NCBI GenBank assembly: GCA_964202905.1
Contig: CAXNJO010000003.1
Location: forward strand, 224,001 to 288,000
Length of the DNA stretch: 64,000 bases
Reading direction: 5' to 3'
From: Polyangiales bacterium
GTDB taxonomy: Bacteria; Myxococcota_A; Polyangia; Polyangiales; JADJQN01
Positions 38,301 through 49,410 of the stretch are shown here, in pieces (position 1 is the stretch's first letter; each line of letters opens with the position of its first letter). Both the position numbers and the translations under genes were made by a program. The notes beneath the pieces are model-generated. The model searched no databases, had not been told where the DNA came from, and was given only the letters and a program-made list of their open reading frames with translations.

Positions 38301-41300
38301 ATGGCGACCCCACCGCAGCGCCGTCCCCGTCGGCGCGCCCTCTCGCGCCTCACGCGCTTCGCGCAGACTGGCTCCCAGAACGTCCTCGAGGCGGTGCGGT
38401 TGTCGCGCCTCGCGGCGAGCGGCGCCTCGCCCTACGAGGTCGTCACGCACGACGCGCTGCACCGCCTGCGCCGCTACGCGCGCAACGAGTCCGCGCATGG
38501 CCCGCGCGCGGCGCTGCTGCTCGTGCCGCCGCTCATGCTGACGGCCGAGATCTACGACATCTCCGCAGATCTCTCGGCCATCGCGCCGCTCGCCGCCGCG
38601 GGCGTCGACTGCTGGGTCGTCGACTTCGGTTCGCCCGAGCGCGAAGAGGGCGGGATGTCGCGCACCCTCGACGACCACGTGCGCACGGTCGCAGGCGCCG
38701 TGCGCACGGTGCGCCGCCTCACCGGGCGCGACGTGCACCTCGCGGGCTACTCGCAAGGCGGGATGTTCGCGTACCAAGCCGCCGCGTACCTGCGCTCCGA
38801 AGGCCTCGCCTCGCTCGTCACCTTCGGCAGCCCCGTCGACGTGCACCGCAACGTGCCCTTCGTGCGCGGCGACGGCCTCGCGGCGCTCGTCCTCCGCGGC
38901 GCGCGCGGCGTGCTCGACGCGCCGCTCAAGCGCATCGAGGGGCTGCCGGGCGTGCTCACGAGCACCGCGTTCAAGCTGCTCACGCCGCGCAAGGAGATCG
39001 AGCAGATGTTCGACCTCGTGCTGCGCCTCTGGGACCGCCAGGAGCTCGAGAAGCGCGCCGCGCGGCGCAAATTCCTCGGCGGCGAGGGCTTCGTCGCGTG
39101 GCCCGGTCCGGCGCTCCGCGCCTTCGTCGACGAGCTGATCGTGCAGAACCGCATGATGGCGGGCGGGATCGTCATCGACGGCCGCACGCTGACGCTCGCC
39201 GACATCCGCTGCCCGATCCTCACCGTCGTCGGCCTCCGCGACGAGATCGCGCTGCCCGCCTCCGTCCGCGGGATCCGCCGCGCCGCGCCGCACGCGGAGG
39301 TGCACGAGATCGACGTCGAGGCCGGGCACTTCGGGCTCGTCGTCGGCTCGCGCGCGCTGCGCGAGACGTGGCCCTCGGTGCGCGAGTGGATGCGCTGGCG
39401 CGACGAAGGGGGCCCGGTGCCCGCGCGCCTCGCGGCGCAGGCGGAGGGCGCGACACCGCAGGCCGAGGACTGGGAGCAGGGCTCGGACGCGTGGGACTTC
39501 GCCGTGCCGCTCGACCCGGAGCTCGTGCGCGACGCCGTGCGCTCGACGGTGGGCAACGCCGCGGGCCGCGTCGCCGAGCTGATCGAGGACGCGACGCAGA
39601 ACGCGAGCGCGCTGCGCTGGCAGGTGCCGAAGCTGCGGCGGCTCGGGCGCATCGGGCGCGACACGCGGGTGAGCTTCTCCTTCGAGCTCGCGCGACGCGC
39701 CGCGAAGTCGCCCGACGCGACGTTCTTCCTCTGGAGCGGGCGCGCGTTCTCGTTCCGCAGCGCGGACGAGCGCGTCACGCACGTCGCGAAGGGGCTGCTC
39801 GCGTGCGACGTCGGGCGCGGGGCGCGCGTGGGCGTCGTGATGCTCGGCCGACCGAGCCTGCTGAGCGGCGTGTGCGCGCTCATCCGCCTCGGCGCCGTGG
39901 CCGTGGTCGCGCCGCACGACGCGGGCGACGACGAGCTCGTGCGCGCGCTCTCCGAAGAAGGCGTCGGCGCGGTCCTCACCGACCCCGAGAACGCCGCGCG
40001 GATGCGCCGCCTCTTCCCCCGCGTGCTCGTGCTCGGCGGGGCCGGGAGCGCAGGGCGCGCGCTGCCCGAGGGCGTCGTCGACATGGAGGCGATCGACACC
40101 GCCAGCCGCGATTTCCCCCCCGGATTCGTGCCCGACGCGGGCCTCGCGCAGGATCTCGCGATGGTGCTGCTGACGCGCTCGGCGCGCGGCGGGCTGCGCG
40201 CGTCGCCGGTCACGAACCACCGCTGGGCGTTCTCCGCGCTCGGCGCCGCGGCGGCCTGCACGCTCGCGCCGCACGACACCGTCTACGTGTGTCTGCCGCT
40301 GCACCACCCCGCGGGCCTGCTCGTCGCGGTGTCGAGCGCGGTCGCCGCGGGCGCGCGCCTCGCGCTCGGCTCCGACTTCTCGCCCGAGACGTTCTTCCCC
40401 GAGGTGCGCCGCTACGGCGCGACCATCGTCTTCTACGCGGGCGACATGCTCCGCGCGCTCATCGCGCAGCCGCCCTCGCCCGCCGACCGCAGCCACCCGC
40501 TGCGCCTCGCCGCCGGCAGCGGCATGCGGGCCGACGTCGCGCGCGCGGTGCGCGAGCGCTTCGGCGTCGGCGTGCTCGAGATCTACGCGTCGACCTCGCA
40601 CCACGTCGTCATGGTCGATGCGGCGGGCGAGAAGCCGGGCGCCGTCGGTCGCCCGCTGCCCGGCACGGCGGAGGTCTTCCTCGCGCGCTGGGACTTCGGG
40701 CTCGGTGCGCTCGCGCGCGACCGACGCGGCCGCGCGGTCCCCAGCGAGCCCGGCGAACCCGGGGCCGCGCTCGTGCGCCTCGACGCGCGCCACGGCGACG
40801 GCGCGACGCTCGAGCCATCCCGCATCGTCTCCGGCGTGCGCGAAGCAGGCGACCAGTTCTACGTGCTGCGCGACGTGCTCTCGCGCGACGCCGACGGCGA
40901 CCACTTCTACCTCGGCACGCTCGACGAGGCCGTGCTGCGCGGGGACACGCCCGTATTCCCACGCGCGATCGAGGACGTCCTCTACCGCGTCCCCGGCGTC
41001 GAGCGCGCGATCGTGCAGGCGCGCCGCGCGCCCGGCGGCGGCACCACGCTCGTCGCGACGCTGCAGCTCGGCGCGACGCAGCCCGCCGCGCCCGACGGCC
41101 TGCCTCCCCTCGACGCGGCCGCGCTCGCGACCATCGTCGACGATGGTCTTGCGCCCGCAGCGCGCCCGGACGTCGTGCGCGTCGCCTCGAAGCTGGAGGT
41201 CTCCGCGGGCTTCCGCGTGCTCGCCCCGGCGCTCCCCGACGAGCTGCGCGCCGAGCGCGGCGTGCGCGTCCTCGCGCGGCGCGGCGCGGGCTACGCGTCG

Positions 41301-41306
41301 GTCTGA
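38301..41306 (+). CDS. Alpha/beta-hydrolase (PhaC-like fold) fused to an acyl-CoA synthetase-like domain (Rv1683-like)
   Basis: LLVPPLM, VDFGSP, GYSQGG and GHFGLVVG; AMP-binding fold with PLHH and GAVGRPLPG. Confidence 0.8.
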   Translation: MATPPQRRPRRRALSRLTRFAQTGSQNVLEAVRLSRLAASGASPYEVVTHDALHRLRRYARNESAHGPRAALLLVPPLMLTAEIYDISADLSAIAPLAAAGVDCWVVDFGSPEREEGGMSRTLDDHVRTVAGAVRTVRRLTGRDVHLAGYSQGGMFAYQAAAYLRSEGLASLVTFGSPVDVHRNVPFVRGDGLAALVLRGARGVLDAPLKRIEGLPGVLTSTAFKLLTPRKEIEQMFDLVLRLWDRQELEKRAARRKFLGGEGFVAWPGPALRAFVDELIVQNRMMAGGIVIDGRTLTLADIRCPILTVVGLRDEIALPASVRGIRRAAPHAEVHEIDVEAGHFGLVVGSRALRETWPSVREWMRWRDEGGPVPARLAAQAEGATPQAEDWEQGSDAWDFAVPLDPELVRDAVRSTVGNAAGRVAELIEDATQNASALRWQVPKLRRLGRIGRDTRVSFSFELARRAAKSPDATFFLWSGRAFSFRSADERVTHVAKGLLACDVGRGARVGVVMLGRPSLLSGVCALIRLGAVAVVAPHDAGDDELVRALSEEGVGAVLTDPENAARMRRLFPRVLVLGGAGSAGRALPEGVVDMEAIDTASRDFPPGFVPDAGLAQDLAMVLLTRSARGGLRASPVTNHRWAFSALGAAAACTLAPHDTVYVCLPLHHPAGLLVAVSSAVAAGARLALGSDFSPETFFPEVRRYGATIVFYAGDMLRALIAQPPSPADRSHPLRLAAGSGMRADVARAVRERFGVGVLEIYASTSHHVVMVDAAGEKPGAVGRPLPGTAEVFLARWDFGLGALARDRRGRAVPSEPGEPGAALVRLDARHGDGATLEPSRIVSGVREAGDQFYVLRDVLSRDADGDHFYLGTLDEAVLRGDTPVFPRAIEDVLYRVPGVERAIVQARRAPGGGTTLVATLQLGATQPAAPDGLPPLDAAALATIVDDGLAPAARPDVVRVASKLEVSAGFRVLAPALPDELRAERGVRVLARRGAGYASV

Positions 41307-42185
41307 CGGCGGCGTACGGGAAGCACGCGCGAGACGCGCGGCTGACAGCGCGCGCAGTGCACCGTCGCGCGGCCGGCCTGCGCGATCGTCGCGAGCACGT
41401 GCCCGCAACGCGGACACGGCTGCCCGTCGCGCCCGTAGACGAGAAAGCGGTTCACGCCACCGTCGCCGAGATAGGCGAAGTCGGTCCGCGCGACCTCGCG
41501 CATCGCGAAGCGCAGCGCGCCGGCGATCCCGCGCGCGAGCCGCCGCAGCGCGTCCGCATCGAGCGCACCCGCGGGCGTCTCCGGGTGCACGCCCGCGCGG
41601 AACAACGCCTCGGTCGCGTGGATGTTCCCGAGACCCGCGAGCACCGCCTGATCGAGGAGCGCCGCCTTGATCGGCCGGCGCTGCCCCGCGAGCACCCGCC
41701 GCAGCGTCGCGGTGCGCCCGCCATAACGCAGCGCGTCAGGACCGAGCGCGTCGACGCCCGCGAGCGTGCGCACCGCCTCCGGCGGCCCCGCGCTCGCCGT
41801 CCCGAAGCGGCGCACGTCGACGAAGGCGAGGCGATGCGCGCTCGAGCCCGAGGGCGTAGCGCGTGTGGGGCGGGAGCGGCGCCTCGCGCGCCGTGACCAC
41901 GAAGCGCCCCGTCATGCGCAGATGCGTCCACAGCAGCGTCTCGCGCAGCCCCTCATCGCCACATGACGCACCTCGCGACGCACCGTCCGCGAGCGTGACG
42001 AAGAGGTGCTTGCCCTCGCGCGTCGCGCCCACGACGACGCGGCCCCGGAGCGCGGCGACGAAGCCCTCGACGTCGACGCCGCGCAGCACGCGCGCGTCGG
42101 TGACGACCACCTCCTCGACGCGCGCACCGCGCGCGGCCGCGTCGAGAAGGCGCGCCTCGCGCTCGACCTCGGGCAGCTCCGGCAC
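41291..42185 (-). CDS. mutM: Formamidopyrimidine-DNA glycosylase (frameshift ~41838)
   Basis: MPELPEVE, REGKHL, HLRMTG, LGPDAL, LLDQ..AGLGNI and a C-terminal CPRC...CARCQ zinc finger. Confidence 0.92.
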
Positions 42186-45376: not shown

Positions 45377-45438
45377 CGGCCCGTGAAGTTCCACGAAGAA
45401 TGCGCCGGACGCAAACGCCTTCCGCTATCCTCGCGCGC

Positions 45439-46650
45439 ATGAGTGAGCGTCACACCATCCTCTGCCTCGCGAGCTACGAGAAGGGCCACGACTTCCTCCG
45501 CCAGTGCAAAGCGCAGGGTTGGCGCGTCCTCCTGCTCGCCTCCCTCAGCCTGAAGGACGTCGCGAAGTGGCCGAGCGAGGCCGTCGACGAGGTCTTCTGG
45601 ATGCGCGACGTCGAGAAGAAATGGGACCCGCAGGAGACGCTCCGCGCCGTCAGCTACCTCGCGCGCTCGCACCAGATCGATCGCATCGTGCCGCTCGACG
45701 ACTTCGACCTCGAGATCGCCGCGCTGCTCCGCGAGCACCTGCGCGTGCCGGGCATGGGCGAGACGACGACGCGCTACTTCCGCGACAAGCTCGCGATGCG
45801 CGTCCGCGCCCAGAGCGCGGGGCTGCGCGTGCCGGAGTTCGTCGGCGTGATCAACGACGCGCAGATTCGCGCGTTCACCGCGCGCATCCCCGCGCCGTGG
45901 ATGCTCAAGCCGCGCTTCATGGCGGGCTCGATCGGCATCCGCAAGATCGAGAACGAGAAGGAGCTCTGGCAGCGCATCGACGAGCTCGGCGACGAGCGCT
46001 CGCTCTACGTGCTCGAGCGCTACCTGCCCGGCGACGTCTTCCACGTCGATGCGCTCGTCTTCGAGAACCACGTCCGCTTCGCGATCGCGAGCGCCTACGG
46101 CAAGCCGCCGTTCGACGCCTCGCACGGCGGCGACGTCTTCACCACGCGCGTGATGCCGCGCACCGACCCGCTCGCGGTGCGCCTCTCCGCCGACTGCGCG
46201 AAGGTGCTCGGCGCGATGCGCCTCGTGCGCGGCGCCTCGCACACCGAGTTCATCCGCGCGCACGCGGACGGGCAGCTCTACTTCCTCGAGACGGCCGCGC
46301 GCGTCGGCGGCGCGCACATCGCGGACATGCTCGAGGCCGCGACCGGCCTGAACATGTGGCGCGAGTGGGCGAAGATCGAGCTCGCCGGCGAGGACGGCTC
46401 GTACGACGTCCGCGCATCGCGCGAGGAGTACGCCGGCCTGCTCGTCGCGCTCGCCCGCGAGGAGCGCCCGGACACGCGCACCTTCGCCGAGCCGGAGGTC
46501 GTCTGGCGCATGGACAAGAAGTTCCACATCGGGCTCGTCGTGCGCTCGCTGAACGCGGCGCGCGTCGAGACGCTCGTCGGCGAGTACCGCGAGCGCATCC
46601 GCCGCGACGTGCTCGCCTTCGTGCCGCCGCCCGCGCGCCCGGGCGACTGA
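45439..46650 (+). CDS. ATP-grasp domain protein
   Basis: FRDKLAMR, MLKPR..AGSIGIRK, LERYLPG and HTEFI...YFLETAARVGG motifs. Confidence 0.88.
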   Translation: MSERHTILCLASYEKGHDFLRQCKAQGWRVLLLASLSLKDVAKWPSEAVDEVFWMRDVEKKWDPQETLRAVSYLARSHQIDRIVPLDDFDLEIAALLREHLRVPGMGETTTRYFRDKLAMRVRAQSAGLRVPEFVGVINDAQIRAFTARIPAPWMLKPRFMAGSIGIRKIENEKELWQRIDELGDERSLYVLERYLPGDVFHVDALVFENHVRFAIASAYGKPPFDASHGGDVFTTRVMPRTDPLAVRLSADCAKVLGAMRLVRGASHTEFIRAHADGQLYFLETAARVGGAHIADMLEAATGLNMWREWAKIELAGEDGSYDVRASREEYAGLLVALAREERPDTRTFAEPEVVWRMDKKFHIGLVVRSLNAARVETLVGEYRERIRRDVLAFVPPPARPGD

Positions 46651-46792
46651 TCCCGCGGCGCGATCCGCGCGAGCCATCCGAGGCCCGCGCGGATTTCGTA
46701 TCTGCGACGCAGGATTTCATCCGCGCGATGCGCGCGGCCCGGCGCGAGCGACTCGGCCATCCGAACACCGAGGTTTCCCGCCTCTTCATGCA

Positions 46793-46808
46793 TGGCACGG
46801 TTACTGCA
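46793..46808 (+). promoter_or_regulatory. Sigma-54 (-24/-12) promoter
   Basis: TGGCACG-GTTA-CTGCA: GG at 46794-46795 and GC at 46806-46807 with exact GG-N10-GC spacing; one mismatch to TGGCACG-N4-TTGCW. Confidence 0.75.
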
Positions 46809-46819
46809 TCAGGTTTGAT

Positions 46820-46930
46820 GGCAGACGGCAGAGCGCGCGCCCCTCCCCCCAACGCGTGCCGGCCGTCGCCCTCTGTGGTGGCTCGAGCGACCTCCCATCC
46901 CCCCCCTTGGGGAGGTCGCTCGGGCTGCCC
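46820..46930 (+). ncRNA. Candidate sigma-54-dependent sRNA with two C-rich-loop hairpins
   Basis: The predicted TSS coincides with the base of hairpin 1 (46820-46870, loop CCCCTCCCCCCAA). Hairpin 2 is 46881-46925 (16-bp stem, loop ATCCCCCCCCTTG). No plus-strand gene follows; the next gene is convergent. Confidence 0.6.
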
Positions 46931-46949
46931 TCTTCGGTGTCTCCTGCGC

Positions 46950-47336
46950 TCAGCGGACGGCGAGCGCGGCGACCACCAGCGCGGCCCAGCCCACGAGCAG
47001 CAGCACGCCCCCGATCGGCGTGATCGCGCCGAGCCAGCGCGCACCGCTCACCGCGAGCGCGTAGAGCGAGCCCGAGAACACGAGCACCCCGACCGCGAAG
47101 GCGAACCCCGCGACGGTCGCGGCCGCGTGCTGCGTCCGACCCGCGAGCAGCGCGGCGAGCCCGATCGCGAGCGCATGCGCGAGGTGGTACTGCGTCGCCG
47201 TCTGCCACCACTCGACGCGCTTCGCCGCGTCTGCCGCGCGCTCGAACACGTGCCGCAGCCCGTGCGCGCCGAACGCCCCGAGCGCGACCCCGAAAAAGCC
47301 GTAGACCCCCGCGACGACGAGCAGCGTTCGCTCCAT
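46950..47336 (-). CDS. DUF423 (YgdD/TMEM256) membrane protein
   Basis: VALGAFGAHGL, WQTATQYHLAHAL, FSGSLYAL and LGAITPIGG motifs. Confidence 0.92.
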   Translation of the reverse strand: MERTLLVVAGVYGFFGVALGAFGAHGLRHVFERAADAAKRVEWWQTATQYHLAHALAIGLAALLAGRTQHAAATVAGFAFAVGVLVFSGSLYALAVSGARWLGAITPIGGVLLLVGWAALVVAALAVR

Positions 47337-47421
47337 GGCGCGGCAGCGTAGCGGCGCATGCCGCACGCGCACCCCGCGCGGCACGCGTTCCACGACATCG
47401 TGCCTCGTGTACCCTCGGGCC

Positions 47422-49410
47422 ATGCGCACCACCGTCCGGTCTGCCGTGCTGCTCGCGTGTCTGCTCTTCACCGCCTGCGGAGGCAGCGACACGCCCCCCG
47501 ATCGCCCCTCGCGTCCCGACGGCGGCACGGTCGCCCGTGACGAAGACGGCGACGGCATCACCGACGCGGACGAGGGACGCGCCGAGGGGCGCGACAGCGA
47601 CGGCGACGGCACGCCGGACTACCTCGACAACGACTCCGACGACGACGGGCTCCCCGATTCGCTCGAGGCGGGCGACGACCTCGCATCGACGCCGCCCATC
47701 GACACCGACGCCGACGGCGCGCCGGACTTCATCGACACGGACACGGACGGCAACGGCGTCCTCGACGCGGTCGAGGGCGACGGCGACCTCGACGGCGACG
47801 GCCTCGCGGACTACCGCGACTTCGACGACGACGGCGACCTGATCCGCGACGGGATGGAGCTCGGCGACGCGCCCGAGTCGACCGACAGCGACGGCGACGG
47901 CGTCCCGAACTGGCGCGATCCGGACAGCGACGGCGACACCATCCTCGATGGTCATGAGTTCGGCTTCGACACCGACGGGGACGCCCTCCCGGATCAGCGC
48001 GACCTCGACTCGGACGGCGACGGAATCCCCGACGCCGCCGAGGCGGGCGACGCCGACATCGCGACCCTGCCCGTCGACACCGACATGGACGGAACGCCCG
48101 ACTTCCGCGACACCGACGCCGACGACGACGGCCTCTCCGACGCCGACGAGGCCCTCGCGGGAACCTCGCCGACCACGGGCGACACGGACGGCGACGGCGT
48201 CTCGGATCTGATCGAGGTCGCCGCCTCCACCGACCCGCGCGACGCCGCCGACAGCCCGCGCGCGCGGGGCAATTTCGTGTTCGTCGTCCCCTACATGCAG
48301 CCGCCCGCGCCCCCGCGCGACACGCTCGGCTTCCGCACGAACATCCAGTTCGCGGACATCTACTTCCTCTTCGACATCTCCGGGTCGATGTCCGGCGAGA
48401 TCGGCGCGCTGCGTGGCGCCGTGTCCACGCTCGTCGACGACTTCACCTGCATGGACAGCGGCATCGCGTGCACGTCCGACGCCGAGTGCGCGAGCCCGCT
48501 CGTGTGCAGCCGCCTGAGCGGCACGTGCATCGAGAATCCCGCGACGAGCGCGTGCCTGCTGAGCACGTACAGCGGCGCGGGCTACTACGAGGCCAGCTAC
48601 CGCAACCTCCTCTCGCTGCAGCCGAGCCCGGCCGCGACGTCGGCGGCCCTCGCCGTCGCGACGTTCGGTGGCACGGAGAGCCTCTACCGCGCGCTCTGGG
48701 GCGTCGCGGATCCGCGCGGCGCGCCCGGCTCGCCGGCGGACTGCGCGGCCCCGATGCCGGGCTTCGTCGGCTGCCCGGCGTTCCGCGACGAAGCCGTGAA
48801 GATCGTCGTCGCCTTCACCGACGAGGACAGCGACGGAGCCGAGACCTCGCTCTCGGCTTCGACCGCGCTGCGCGCCGCGGAGATCAAAGTCATCGGCGTC
48901 TGGAGCGGCGCGACGACGAGCACGGCGCGCACGGACCTCGTCGACGTCGTGCGCGACTCGGGCTCGCTCGACCCGGCCGGCATGCCCCTCGTCTACAACG
49001 GCGCAGACGCGTCGGTCGTGCCCGCGGTCGCAGGCGCGATCCGCACGATCGTCGAGGGCGTGCCCATCCGCGTCACGATCGAGGCGACGGATCAGCCCGA
49101 CGACGCGGGCGACGCGCTGCCCTTCATCGAGCGCCTCGAGGTCAACGTGAGCGGCGGCGACTGCACCGCCGTCGCCGAGCTCGAGGACACGAACGGCGAC
49201 GGCTTCAACGACGCCTTCCCGTCGCTGCGCCCCGGCACGCCCGTCTGCTGGGACGTCGTCGCGCGGGAGAACGCCACCGTGATGCCGACCCGCAGCCCGC
49301 AGATCTTCAAGGCGCTGCTCACCGTCCGCGGCAACGGCTCGCCGCTCGACACGCGCGACGTGTACTTCCTCGTCCCGCCCACCATCCCGATGCCCGGCGG
49401 TCCCGGCTGA
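47422..49410 (+). CDS. Lipoprotein with TSP3-like Ca-binding repeats and a VWA domain (CglD-like)
   Basis: Lipobox LFTAC; many DxDGDGxPD repeats; DIYFLFDISGSM (MIDAS) and AFTDE. Confidence 0.8.
   Translation: MRTTVRSAVLLACLLFTACGGSDTPPDRPSRPDGGTVARDEDGDGITDADEGRAEGRDSDGDGTPDYLDNDSDDDGLPDSLEAGDDLASTPPIDTDADGAPDFIDTDTDGNGVLDAVEGDGDLDGDGLADYRDFDDDGDLIRDGMELGDAPESTDSDGDGVPNWRDPDSDGDTILDGHEFGFDTDGDALPDQRDLDSDGDGIPDAAEAGDADIATLPVDTDMDGTPDFRDTDADDDGLSDADEALAGTSPTTGDTDGDGVSDLIEVAASTDPRDAADSPRARGNFVFVVPYMQPPAPPRDTLGFRTNIQFADIYFLFDISGSMSGEIGALRGAVSTLVDDFTCMDSGIACTSDAECASPLVCSRLSGTCIENPATSACLLSTYSGAGYYEASYRNLLSLQPSPAATSAALAVATFGGTESLYRALWGVADPRGAPGSPADCAAPMPGFVGCPAFRDEAVKIVVAFTDEDSDGAETSLSASTALRAAEIKVIGVWSGATTSTARTDLVDVVRDSGSLDPAGMPLVYNGADASVVPAVAGAIRTIVEGVPIRVTIEATDQPDDAGDALPFIERLEVNVSGGDCTAVAELEDTNGDGFNDAFPSLRPGTPVCWDVVARENATVMPTRSPQIFKALLTVRGNGSPLDTRDVYFLVPPTIPMPGGPG

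Follow-up and report, generated by a model that had tools for sequence, protein, structure and literature searches.

The window analysed here is a stretch of 64,000 nucleotides (G000:C3:224001-288000) from a Polyangiales genome of 5.68 Mb and 73% GC, which is 94% complete. Within the window, the genes of an ATP-grasp protein (+) and a DUF423 protein (-) converge on a gap of 299 nt (46651-46949), given as about 300 nt in the initial annotation, and this gap holds two enhancer-like boxes, a predicted sigma-54 promoter and two predicted hairpins with C-rich loops (Table 1). The hairpin directly 3' of the ATP-grasp stop is poorly kept in the same-genus genome G001, and a simple terminator scan reports no site at this hairpin and no canonical terminator at the 3' end of the RNA. 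By blastn the sRNA element is single-copy in its genome, and a blastn search of the region against 60 relatives returns no homologue. Two further observations concern the surroundings of the gap. Divergent from the DUF423 gene, a gene at 47335-49410 (+) encodes a putative lipoprotein that has numerous TSP3-like repeats rich in Asp and matches VWA weakly, and at 41291-42185 (-) one gene, which we take to be that of a formamidopyrimidine-DNA glycosylase (mutM), is split over two reading frames (41736-42185 and 41291-41815) by a frameshift or an assembly error.

Table 1. Features at the sRNA locus, with positions in the 64,000-nt window.
Feature	Position	Strand	Remarks
ATP-grasp gene, upstream	45400..46650	+	PF13535, 31 bits; neighbour also in same-genus G001
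GC-rich hairpin, possible ATP-grasp terminator	46662..46695	+	z -3.0 for 46651-46720; overlaps enhancer box 1
Enhancer box 1, degenerate TT[TG]CA-N4-TG[AC]AA palindrome, candidate PxrR site	46693..46708		8.8 bits; 100 nt before promoter
Enhancer box 2, 21 bp (two helical turns) after box 1	46714..46729		4.3 bits; core ATTTCAT kept in G001
Predicted sigma-54 (-24/-12) promoter TGGCACG-GTTA-CTGCA	46793..46808	+	conserved in G001; predicted +1 at ~46819
Predicted stem-loop 1, 17 bp, 13-nt loop CCCCUCCCCCCAA (46840-46852)	46820..46870	+	folding; 5' arm and loop start kept in G001
Predicted stem-loop 2, 20 bp including G.U pairs, 13-nt loop AUCCCCCCCCUUG (46897-46909)	46877..46929	+	z -4.7 on +, -1.9 on -
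Predicted 3' end, short pyrimidine tail CUCUUC	46930..46935	+	weaker than the U-runs of many relatives
DUF423 gene, convergent	46950..47336	-	PF04241, 92.5 bits

Read by the sigma-54 spacing rules, the near-consensus -24/-12 promoter proposed by the initial annotation is borne out, being one of only four strict matches (TGGCACG-N4-YTGC[AT]) in the whole genome, where a looser form gives 18, and rpoN is encoded in the same genome. The base of hairpin 1 had been placed at the predicted +1, and on folding it begins one base past it. The stretch 46815-46940 folds at -71.9 kcal/mol (z -5.3, with 0 of 200 shuffles as good), while the reverse strand has a z of -1.4, and the predicted RNA is about 115 nt long. 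Both C-loop hairpins of the initial annotation stand; its 16 bp for hairpin 2 and its linker of 10 nt do not, since the G.U pairs extend the stem and leave a linker of 6 nt. Hairpin 2 is the most stable among 339 C-loop hairpins found at the 2266 C-runs of the genome, and probably acts as a 3'-end stabiliser or terminator as well as a second seed. C-runs in loops alone are common in so GC-rich a genome; the rarity lies in their combination with promoter and enhancer. One metatranscriptome run gives only short dissimilar pieces over the RNA, among them a 35-nt piece with 5 differences, and speaks neither for nor against expression. Overall, we regard it as highly probable that the gap encodes a real sigma-54 sRNA, as predicted. 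That the hairpins are instead terminators or mRNA-end stabilisers of the two convergent genes, with an incidental promoter match, is highly improbable: their position and the distance of 20 nt from hairpin 2 to the DUF423 stop would suit such a role, but the fold is strand-specific through its G.U pairs, the - strand has no U-tail, promoter and enhancer are conserved, and among the relatives described below hairpin 1 mostly starts at +1 to +4 and all gene orientations occur.

The sRNA is found again in G001, where the copy was located via the neighbouring ATP-grasp protein: downstream of the ATP-grasp orthologue come the same promoter and the 5' arm of stem 1, up to the contig end inside loop 1, so that the comparison covers the locus as far as that loop. 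In the alignment with the host genome, conservation forms islands at both upstream boxes, at the promoter and at the 5' stem, set among diverged spacers. The conservation of promoter and loops in relatives, on which the initial annotation had staked its reading, is thus seen here for the promoter, the 5' stem arm and the start of the loop. In fact G001 has two copies, one at the ATP-grasp locus and one behind pxrR; they have 12 nt in common across the -12 box and the spacer, and the pxrR-adjacent copy resembles the sRNA of the host genome on the 3' side of loop 1. The alignment also bears on a reading in which the promoter serves a leaderless mRNA, or an RNA antisense to DUF423. An ATG does lie at the predicted start (46818), its frame is open to 47351 (177 codons), and the weak 3' tail makes read-through possible. 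In G001, however, the ATG is missing from the predicted start and the loop is longer by one C, both of which speak against a reading frame at 46818; the first 45 codons of that frame are without the GC3 bias of the genome (0.71/0.80/0.69 over the three positions), and no such RNA is present near the DUF423 orthologues of G002, G004 and G016. We therefore give this reading very little weight.

We then consider the RNA as a family, beginning with the order to which the host belongs. The promoter plus C-run pattern occurs in 50 of 301 genomes of the order, and on folding, many of the matches, from which the long-hairpin members were chosen by eye, give a long hairpin that begins at +1 to +4 and leaves the C-run unpaired at about +20 to +27. 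When the promoter pattern is made very loose it becomes uninformative, the control being equal to or above the signal. A GTDB-wide scan of all species for the promoter followed by two C-runs yields 62 loci, 28 of which have at least two C-loops on folding; with L199 and L237 set aside as chance, the remaining 26 comprise, by title, 15 loci from Polyangiales, Myxococcales or Deltaproteobacteria (including Chondromyces apiculatus DSM 436 and a Vulgatibacter sp.), 3 from Desulfovibrionaceae and 8 Coriobacteriia-like ones. None of the 19 non-Pxr loci scanned against Rfam reaches an sRNA family. Stems differ between families, and the covariation that the initial annotation asked for in homologues is found inside subfamilies, with two-sided changes at 11 of 16 pairs (20 sequences) and at 10 of 25 pairs (7 sequences), counts which are inflated by kin among the sequences; 0 of 500 shuffles are as high and slid controls are far lower. 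A cross-family MAFFT alignment was out of register and gave a covariance model without base pairs, which was discarded. The idea that the flanking genes are conserved across the family was rejected beyond genus level, as the neighbours differ between families. The number of copies also varies: the pattern is present at 8 places in G291, and a single-contig genome of the order with only 1.8 Mb (G065) has a PxrR orthologue together with two C-loop RNA candidates (L314, L335).

The two boxes upstream of the promoter are absent from the initial annotation, and they connect the locus to Pxr. Nine true Pxr loci were fetched, and their upstream DNA repeats the palindrome TT[TG]CA-N4-TG[AC]AA. With a matrix trained only on the DNA upstream of eight Pxr loci, the box pair of the sRNA scores 13.0, which is rank 1 of the 412 relaxed sigma-54 sites of the genome; single boxes are weak, with 133 positions of the genome scoring at least 8 bits. 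In G001 both boxes lie at the same offsets, and box 1 scores 10.1 bits. The second-best paired score in the host genome belongs to the sigma-54-like sites C3:541601 (+) and C3:540022 (-), which presumably lie within or beside an rRNA operon. Among sigma-54 loci with a C-run, the matrix reaches at least 12 bits in 35 of the 62 that fold into a C-loop hairpin versus 2 of the 89 that do not, where the split follows an objective folding rule and one of the two non-folding high scorers is a member missed by that rule. The 27 folded loci below 12 bits include the sRNA of the host genome itself, Coriobacteriia, Desulfovibrionaceae, another RNA class, and also Vulgatibacter, where the boxes fall a little beyond the scanned stretch and score 15.9 bits when covered. 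The offsets of the best sites upstream of the loci cluster at steps of about 10 bp. On the whole, the pattern of enhancer, promoter and C6 is present in 139 of the 301 genomes of the order, with 3 hits for the reversed control; the host genome, whose boxes are degenerate, fails this strict pattern. The literature searched yielded no binding site for PxrR, and it is conservation that suggests the one proposed here.

A regulator that may bind these boxes is widespread in the order. With PxrR as query, exactly one hit at E<=1e-125 is obtained in 251 of the 301 genomes, in a search that may miss matches (like the 50 and the 139 given above, this tally includes the unpublished genome G122). The orthologue of the host genome lies on another contig than the RNA (G000:C4:131.7-133.1 kb), matches PxrR at 52% and is its reciprocal best hit. 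PxrR orthologues share the recognition helix S-x-TTLWRKMKRL, which differs from that of the other activators of the host genome with the C-terminus covered. In a quick tree of 58 rows, from which 30 names, mostly redundant Polyangiales rows, had been dropped beforehand, the orthologues group with the Myxococcaceae-type PxrR and with the Vulgatibacter protein in a single clade (SH-aLRT 99), to which none of the 24 other activators of the host genome in the tree belongs. Searched against Vulgatibacter, the host protein finds as its best hit the activator of a pxrK-pxrR-RNA-NADH dehydrogenase subunit locus (526 vs 427 bits), and pxr is reported to sit between nla19 and an NADH dehydrogenase gene (PMC5568312). 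The RNA pattern is present in 127 of the 251 genomes with a PxrR hit versus 12 of the 50 without, where kin are not independent and many genomes are drafts. G002 (same family, 94%, 20 contigs) has neither an orthologue-level PxrR hit nor the RNA pattern, and in G004 and G016 (70 and 85% complete) the RNA is present with the PxrR orthologue undetected. The activator beside L054 and L210 was rejected as a PxrR, having 33% identity and falling outside the PxrR clade. We consider it very probable that the sRNA is driven by the PxrR orthologue, as predicted.

The DNA directly behind pxrR provides a link between the sRNA and Pxr through gene position. Of the 41 genomes in the order of G637, 31 have one PxrR hit, and 16 of 29 pxrR loci examined there (one cut by a contig end) carry an RNA with enhancer, promoter and C-run directly downstream, while such an RNA is carried by 0 of 12 loci with an enhancer score below 9. 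Only 3 of the 20 loci scanned reach Rfam Pxr. Four RNAs at the pxr position (L398, L402, L404 and L238) have two C-loops, the same architecture as the sRNA of the host genome, and the first hairpin of the pxr-position RNAs aligns with Pxr around the loop and covaries. In Polyangiales, pxrR and RNA are adjacent in G001, G007, G033, G045 and G113, of which G001, G033, G045 and G113 were inspected on purpose, and the gene order pxrR-RNA-receiver is common to Anaeromyxobacter and to G001, G007 and G045. Among unselected Polyangiales pxrR loci, a clear C-loop hairpin follows pxrR in 1 of 30 (L271), and the enhancer follows it in 13 of 30, mostly driving a lone receiver-domain gene, so that some of the pxrR-adjacent hairpins could be leaders. 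Behind the pxrR of the host genome (contig C4) there is neither an enhancer nor an RNA. As a separate observation, the lone receiver-domain gene, which in many Polyangiales (L253-L278, L363) lies behind pxrR under the enhancer and a variant sigma-54 promoter, is probably a second conserved PxrR target; the host genome is without this cassette behind its pxrR.

Other C-rich RNAs under sigma-54 promoters came up in the same scans. In other classes of the phylum (L161-L174; families f51, f45, f38 and f72), a second conserved sigma-54 RNA forms a long hairpin whose internal bulge holds ACCCCUCCC; it has no PxrR-type enhancer, its neighbour is often a Mur ligase, MFS or homocysteine methyltransferase gene, and the one of L162 has no Rfam match. 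A third (L137-L140, family f52), between the genes of mevalonate diphosphate decarboxylase and aminopeptidase P, is a short hairpin with a CCCCUCCCUCCU loop and a C-rich tail, in tandem copies in L137. The Coriobacteriia-like loci (L182, L183, L216, L218, L225, L228, L229 and L231) have a two-C-loop sigma-54 RNA, in most cases convergent with the gene of an ABC transporter ATPase, and the six of them scanned have no Rfam match, 6C included. Without a PxrR-type enhancer, these two RNA classes and the Coriobacteriia RNAs were excluded as family members. In Desulfovibrionaceae (L198, L235, L242 and L206), C-loop RNAs with up to four loops (L206) lie behind a kinase-activator pair; probably they are the uncharacterised Dv_sRNA2 behind DVU0679.

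Compared with RNAs already described, the sRNA is not an Rfam Pxr member. The Pxr model (RF01812), with a gathering threshold of 80 bits, gives true Pxr loci 111-125 bits; in the Rfam scan, which the initial annotation had suggested as a check, it has no match at E<=10 over 46500-47200, and its best score in the genome is 17 bits, elsewhere. It finds nothing above the cut-off in 121 genomes of the phylum, nor does the 6C model in the host genome. Two home-made models (R2 and R3) do no better and do not detect the sRNA significantly: one, built from a single Polyangiales family, scores it at 18 bits (E 0.12, second in the window) and recovers none of the Pxr loci, and the other, made of Pxr together with the pxr-position RNAs, misses it, with only L203 among 66 loci below E 0.01.

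The likeness to Pxr (PxrK/PxrR = MXAN_1077/1078, Nla19, SpdR) is one of design and control. Both RNAs have a sigma-54 promoter, a C-run in the loop of the first hairpin, a GC-rich 3' terminal hairpin and the same upstream palindrome, with a PxrR orthologue in the genome and no Hfq, and the family has paralogues each with its own promoter, as reported for Cystobacter (PMC5568312). They differ in that Pxr has three stem-loops, with one C-loop and a third that is not C-rich, while the sRNA has two hairpins that are both C-loops, though two Cystobacter pxr paralogues are described as having only two stem-loops (PMC5568312). The C-run is at about +34 from the sigma-54-derived start in Pxr and at +22 in the sRNA. 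Marks of Pxr itself are also its processing to a short form and its block on fruiting-body development. Pxr is directly downstream of pxrK-pxrR, unlike an RNA between ATP-grasp and DUF423 genes, and here the second G001 copy does match (for pxrR only); no pxrK-like GAF kinase is beside the Polyangiales pxrR loci examined, and the host is outside the reported range of Pxr.

Three further RNAs are similar in form. The 6C RNA of Actinobacteria (RF01066) also has two adjacent hairpins with at least 6 C in each loop, but its model gives the sRNA 26.4 bits (E 0.27, cut-off 47) at hairpin 2 only, it belongs to another phylum, and the sigma-54 promoter with PxrR-type boxes is a feature of the sRNA. 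The Cuckoo RNAs of Alphaproteobacteria are described as 2-4 hairpins side by side, in which the C-rich loop is fixed and the stems vary, and which covariance models capture poorly (PMC4615179); their motif CCUCCUCCC is absent from the loops of the sRNA, and hosts and regulator are different. Dv_sRNA2 of Desulfovibrio, downstream of DVU0679, is reported as a sigma-54 sRNA behind a kinase-activator pair with expression on tiling arrays (PMC3333781). In the four Desulfovibrionaceae loci the C-loop hairpins lie behind such a pair, three of the four with the GAYTGS motif that is listed for DVU0679 (PMC4641369), which suggests that they are Dv_sRNA2 orthologues. Their activator is outside the PxrR clade and their upstream site is another one, making them analogues. 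The open literature searched on Pxr, PxrR/Nla19 sites and Polyangiales sRNAs does not describe this RNA family.

The initial annotation had left a choice between a Pxr analogue and a distant homologue. The stand-alone sigma-54 sRNA of Pxr-like design that it proposed is supported by the conservation in G001, by a covarying order-wide family, and by the common activator site together with the orthologue; as to the choice, the regulator and the gene position favour a distant homologue, and RNA sequence homology, which was tested, is not detected. Other activators, too, are found with RNAs of this two-loop design, so the design alone is no proof of descent. In the opposing reading, the sRNA belongs to the PxrR regulon but arose independently of Pxr, anti-SD hairpins with C-rich loops being easy to evolve and recruited more than once by an old PxrR. 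The missing RNA sequence homology, the stems and neighbours that differ between families, and the same architecture in Desulfovibrionaceae (activator 33-40% to PxrR) and Coriobacteriia in the absence of a PxrR-type enhancer all agree with it. It is nevertheless rather unlikely, given the RNAs directly behind pxrR in both orders, the pxrR-RNA-receiver order of Anaeromyxobacter, G001, G007 and G045, and the spacer and inner-stem letters shared by the two G001 copies. In addition, the base of the Pxr terminal stem is enriched, with at most 2 of 16 mismatches in 9 of 53 two-loop RNAs versus 21 of 974 control windows, a post hoc comparison whose controls are not hairpin-matched; against the terminal-stem arms of Pxr L243 (8-bp core) the sRNA itself has 3 of 16 mismatches, all C-to-U changes kept as G.U, as good as 133 of the 974 control windows. 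We conclude that the sRNA is probably a stand-alone, trans-acting RNA of about 115 nt and a relocated two-loop member of a Pxr superfamily, for which common descent with Pxr is about equally probable; most likely, this is a much older superfamily defined by activator, enhancer and C-loop.

For this relocated member we propose the following course of action. The PxrR orthologue would bind the two boxes 80-100 bp upstream and open the sigma-54 promoter, and the RNA would fold into two hairpins whose stems, as folding and covariation in relatives show, serve only to present the unpaired C-rich loops. By analogy with Pxr and 6C, the loops would keep several mRNAs from being translated by pairing, without Hfq, with G-rich stretches at their ribosome-binding sites, a mechanism we hold to be likely. 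Regulator and position, rather than RNA sequence, suggest that the gene and Myxococcus pxr may go back to one ancestral RNA gene beside pxrR, from which position the gene described here would have moved or been duplicated away.

Several observations bear on the pairing. Hfq was not found in the host genome at its 94% completeness; the SD signal there is of the GGAG/GGAGG type, and loop CCCCUCCCCCCAA contains CCUCC, the anti-Shine-Dalgarno core present at the end of the 16S rRNA. Loop duplexes below -18 kcal/mol are found for loop 1 at 32 and for loop 2 at 33 of 2495 called ATG starts versus 16 and 11 in upstream windows, about 2-3-fold more on the calls of a crude gene caller, and a trusted list of targets does not result. 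For Pxr, the loop of SL1 is reported as needed for function and SL3 for accumulation (PMC5684412), and contacts are reported to map near SD sequences (10.1101/2025.09.11.675593); 6C is described as pairing via C-rich loops without chaperones (PMC6486639). Together these reports lead us to read the sRNA as a multi-target translational repressor under PxrR. A developmental role in a genome of 5.7 Mb cannot be assumed.

A real RNA of this kind could also leave ribosome-binding sites alone and act by titrating a protein that binds C-rich RNA, or by sponging another RNA. RNAs that sponge proteins typically have repeated identical loops and many paralogues, and both occur in this family, with 8 places in G291; most loops are pure C-runs, whose pairing with the GGAG-type SD dominant in the host genome is imperfect, and for Pxr itself target pairing or protein binding is left open in a passage of PMC5684412. 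The CCUCC of loop 1, the enrichment of strong duplexes at start regions and the Pxr contacts near SD sequences cited above argue the other way, and we take titration or sponging to be improbable.

With regard to origin, pxr is stated to have arisen within Cystobacterineae (PMC5684412, PMC11928866, PMC8538405) and is cited in the same papers as a recently born sRNA gating multicellular development. The family described here would shift the origin of Pxr to the common ancestor of two orders, and accounts for Rfam missing these RNA genes. It supplies a candidate PxrR binding site, the comparison shows the C-loop to be the conserved working part, and both cross-species target prediction and swap experiments in M. 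xanthus become possible. It also raises the question of the role of the switch where a lineage may form no fruiting bodies. We are inclined, with some reserve, to the view that the switch of PxrR, sigma-54 and C-loop RNA predates the split of Myxococcales and Polyangiales and persists even in a 1.8-Mb genome, in multi-copy one-loop and two-loop forms of which only C-loop, enhancer and activator are conserved, and that it may have been a phylum-level brake on G-rich ribosome-binding sites which was later tied to development in Myxococcus.
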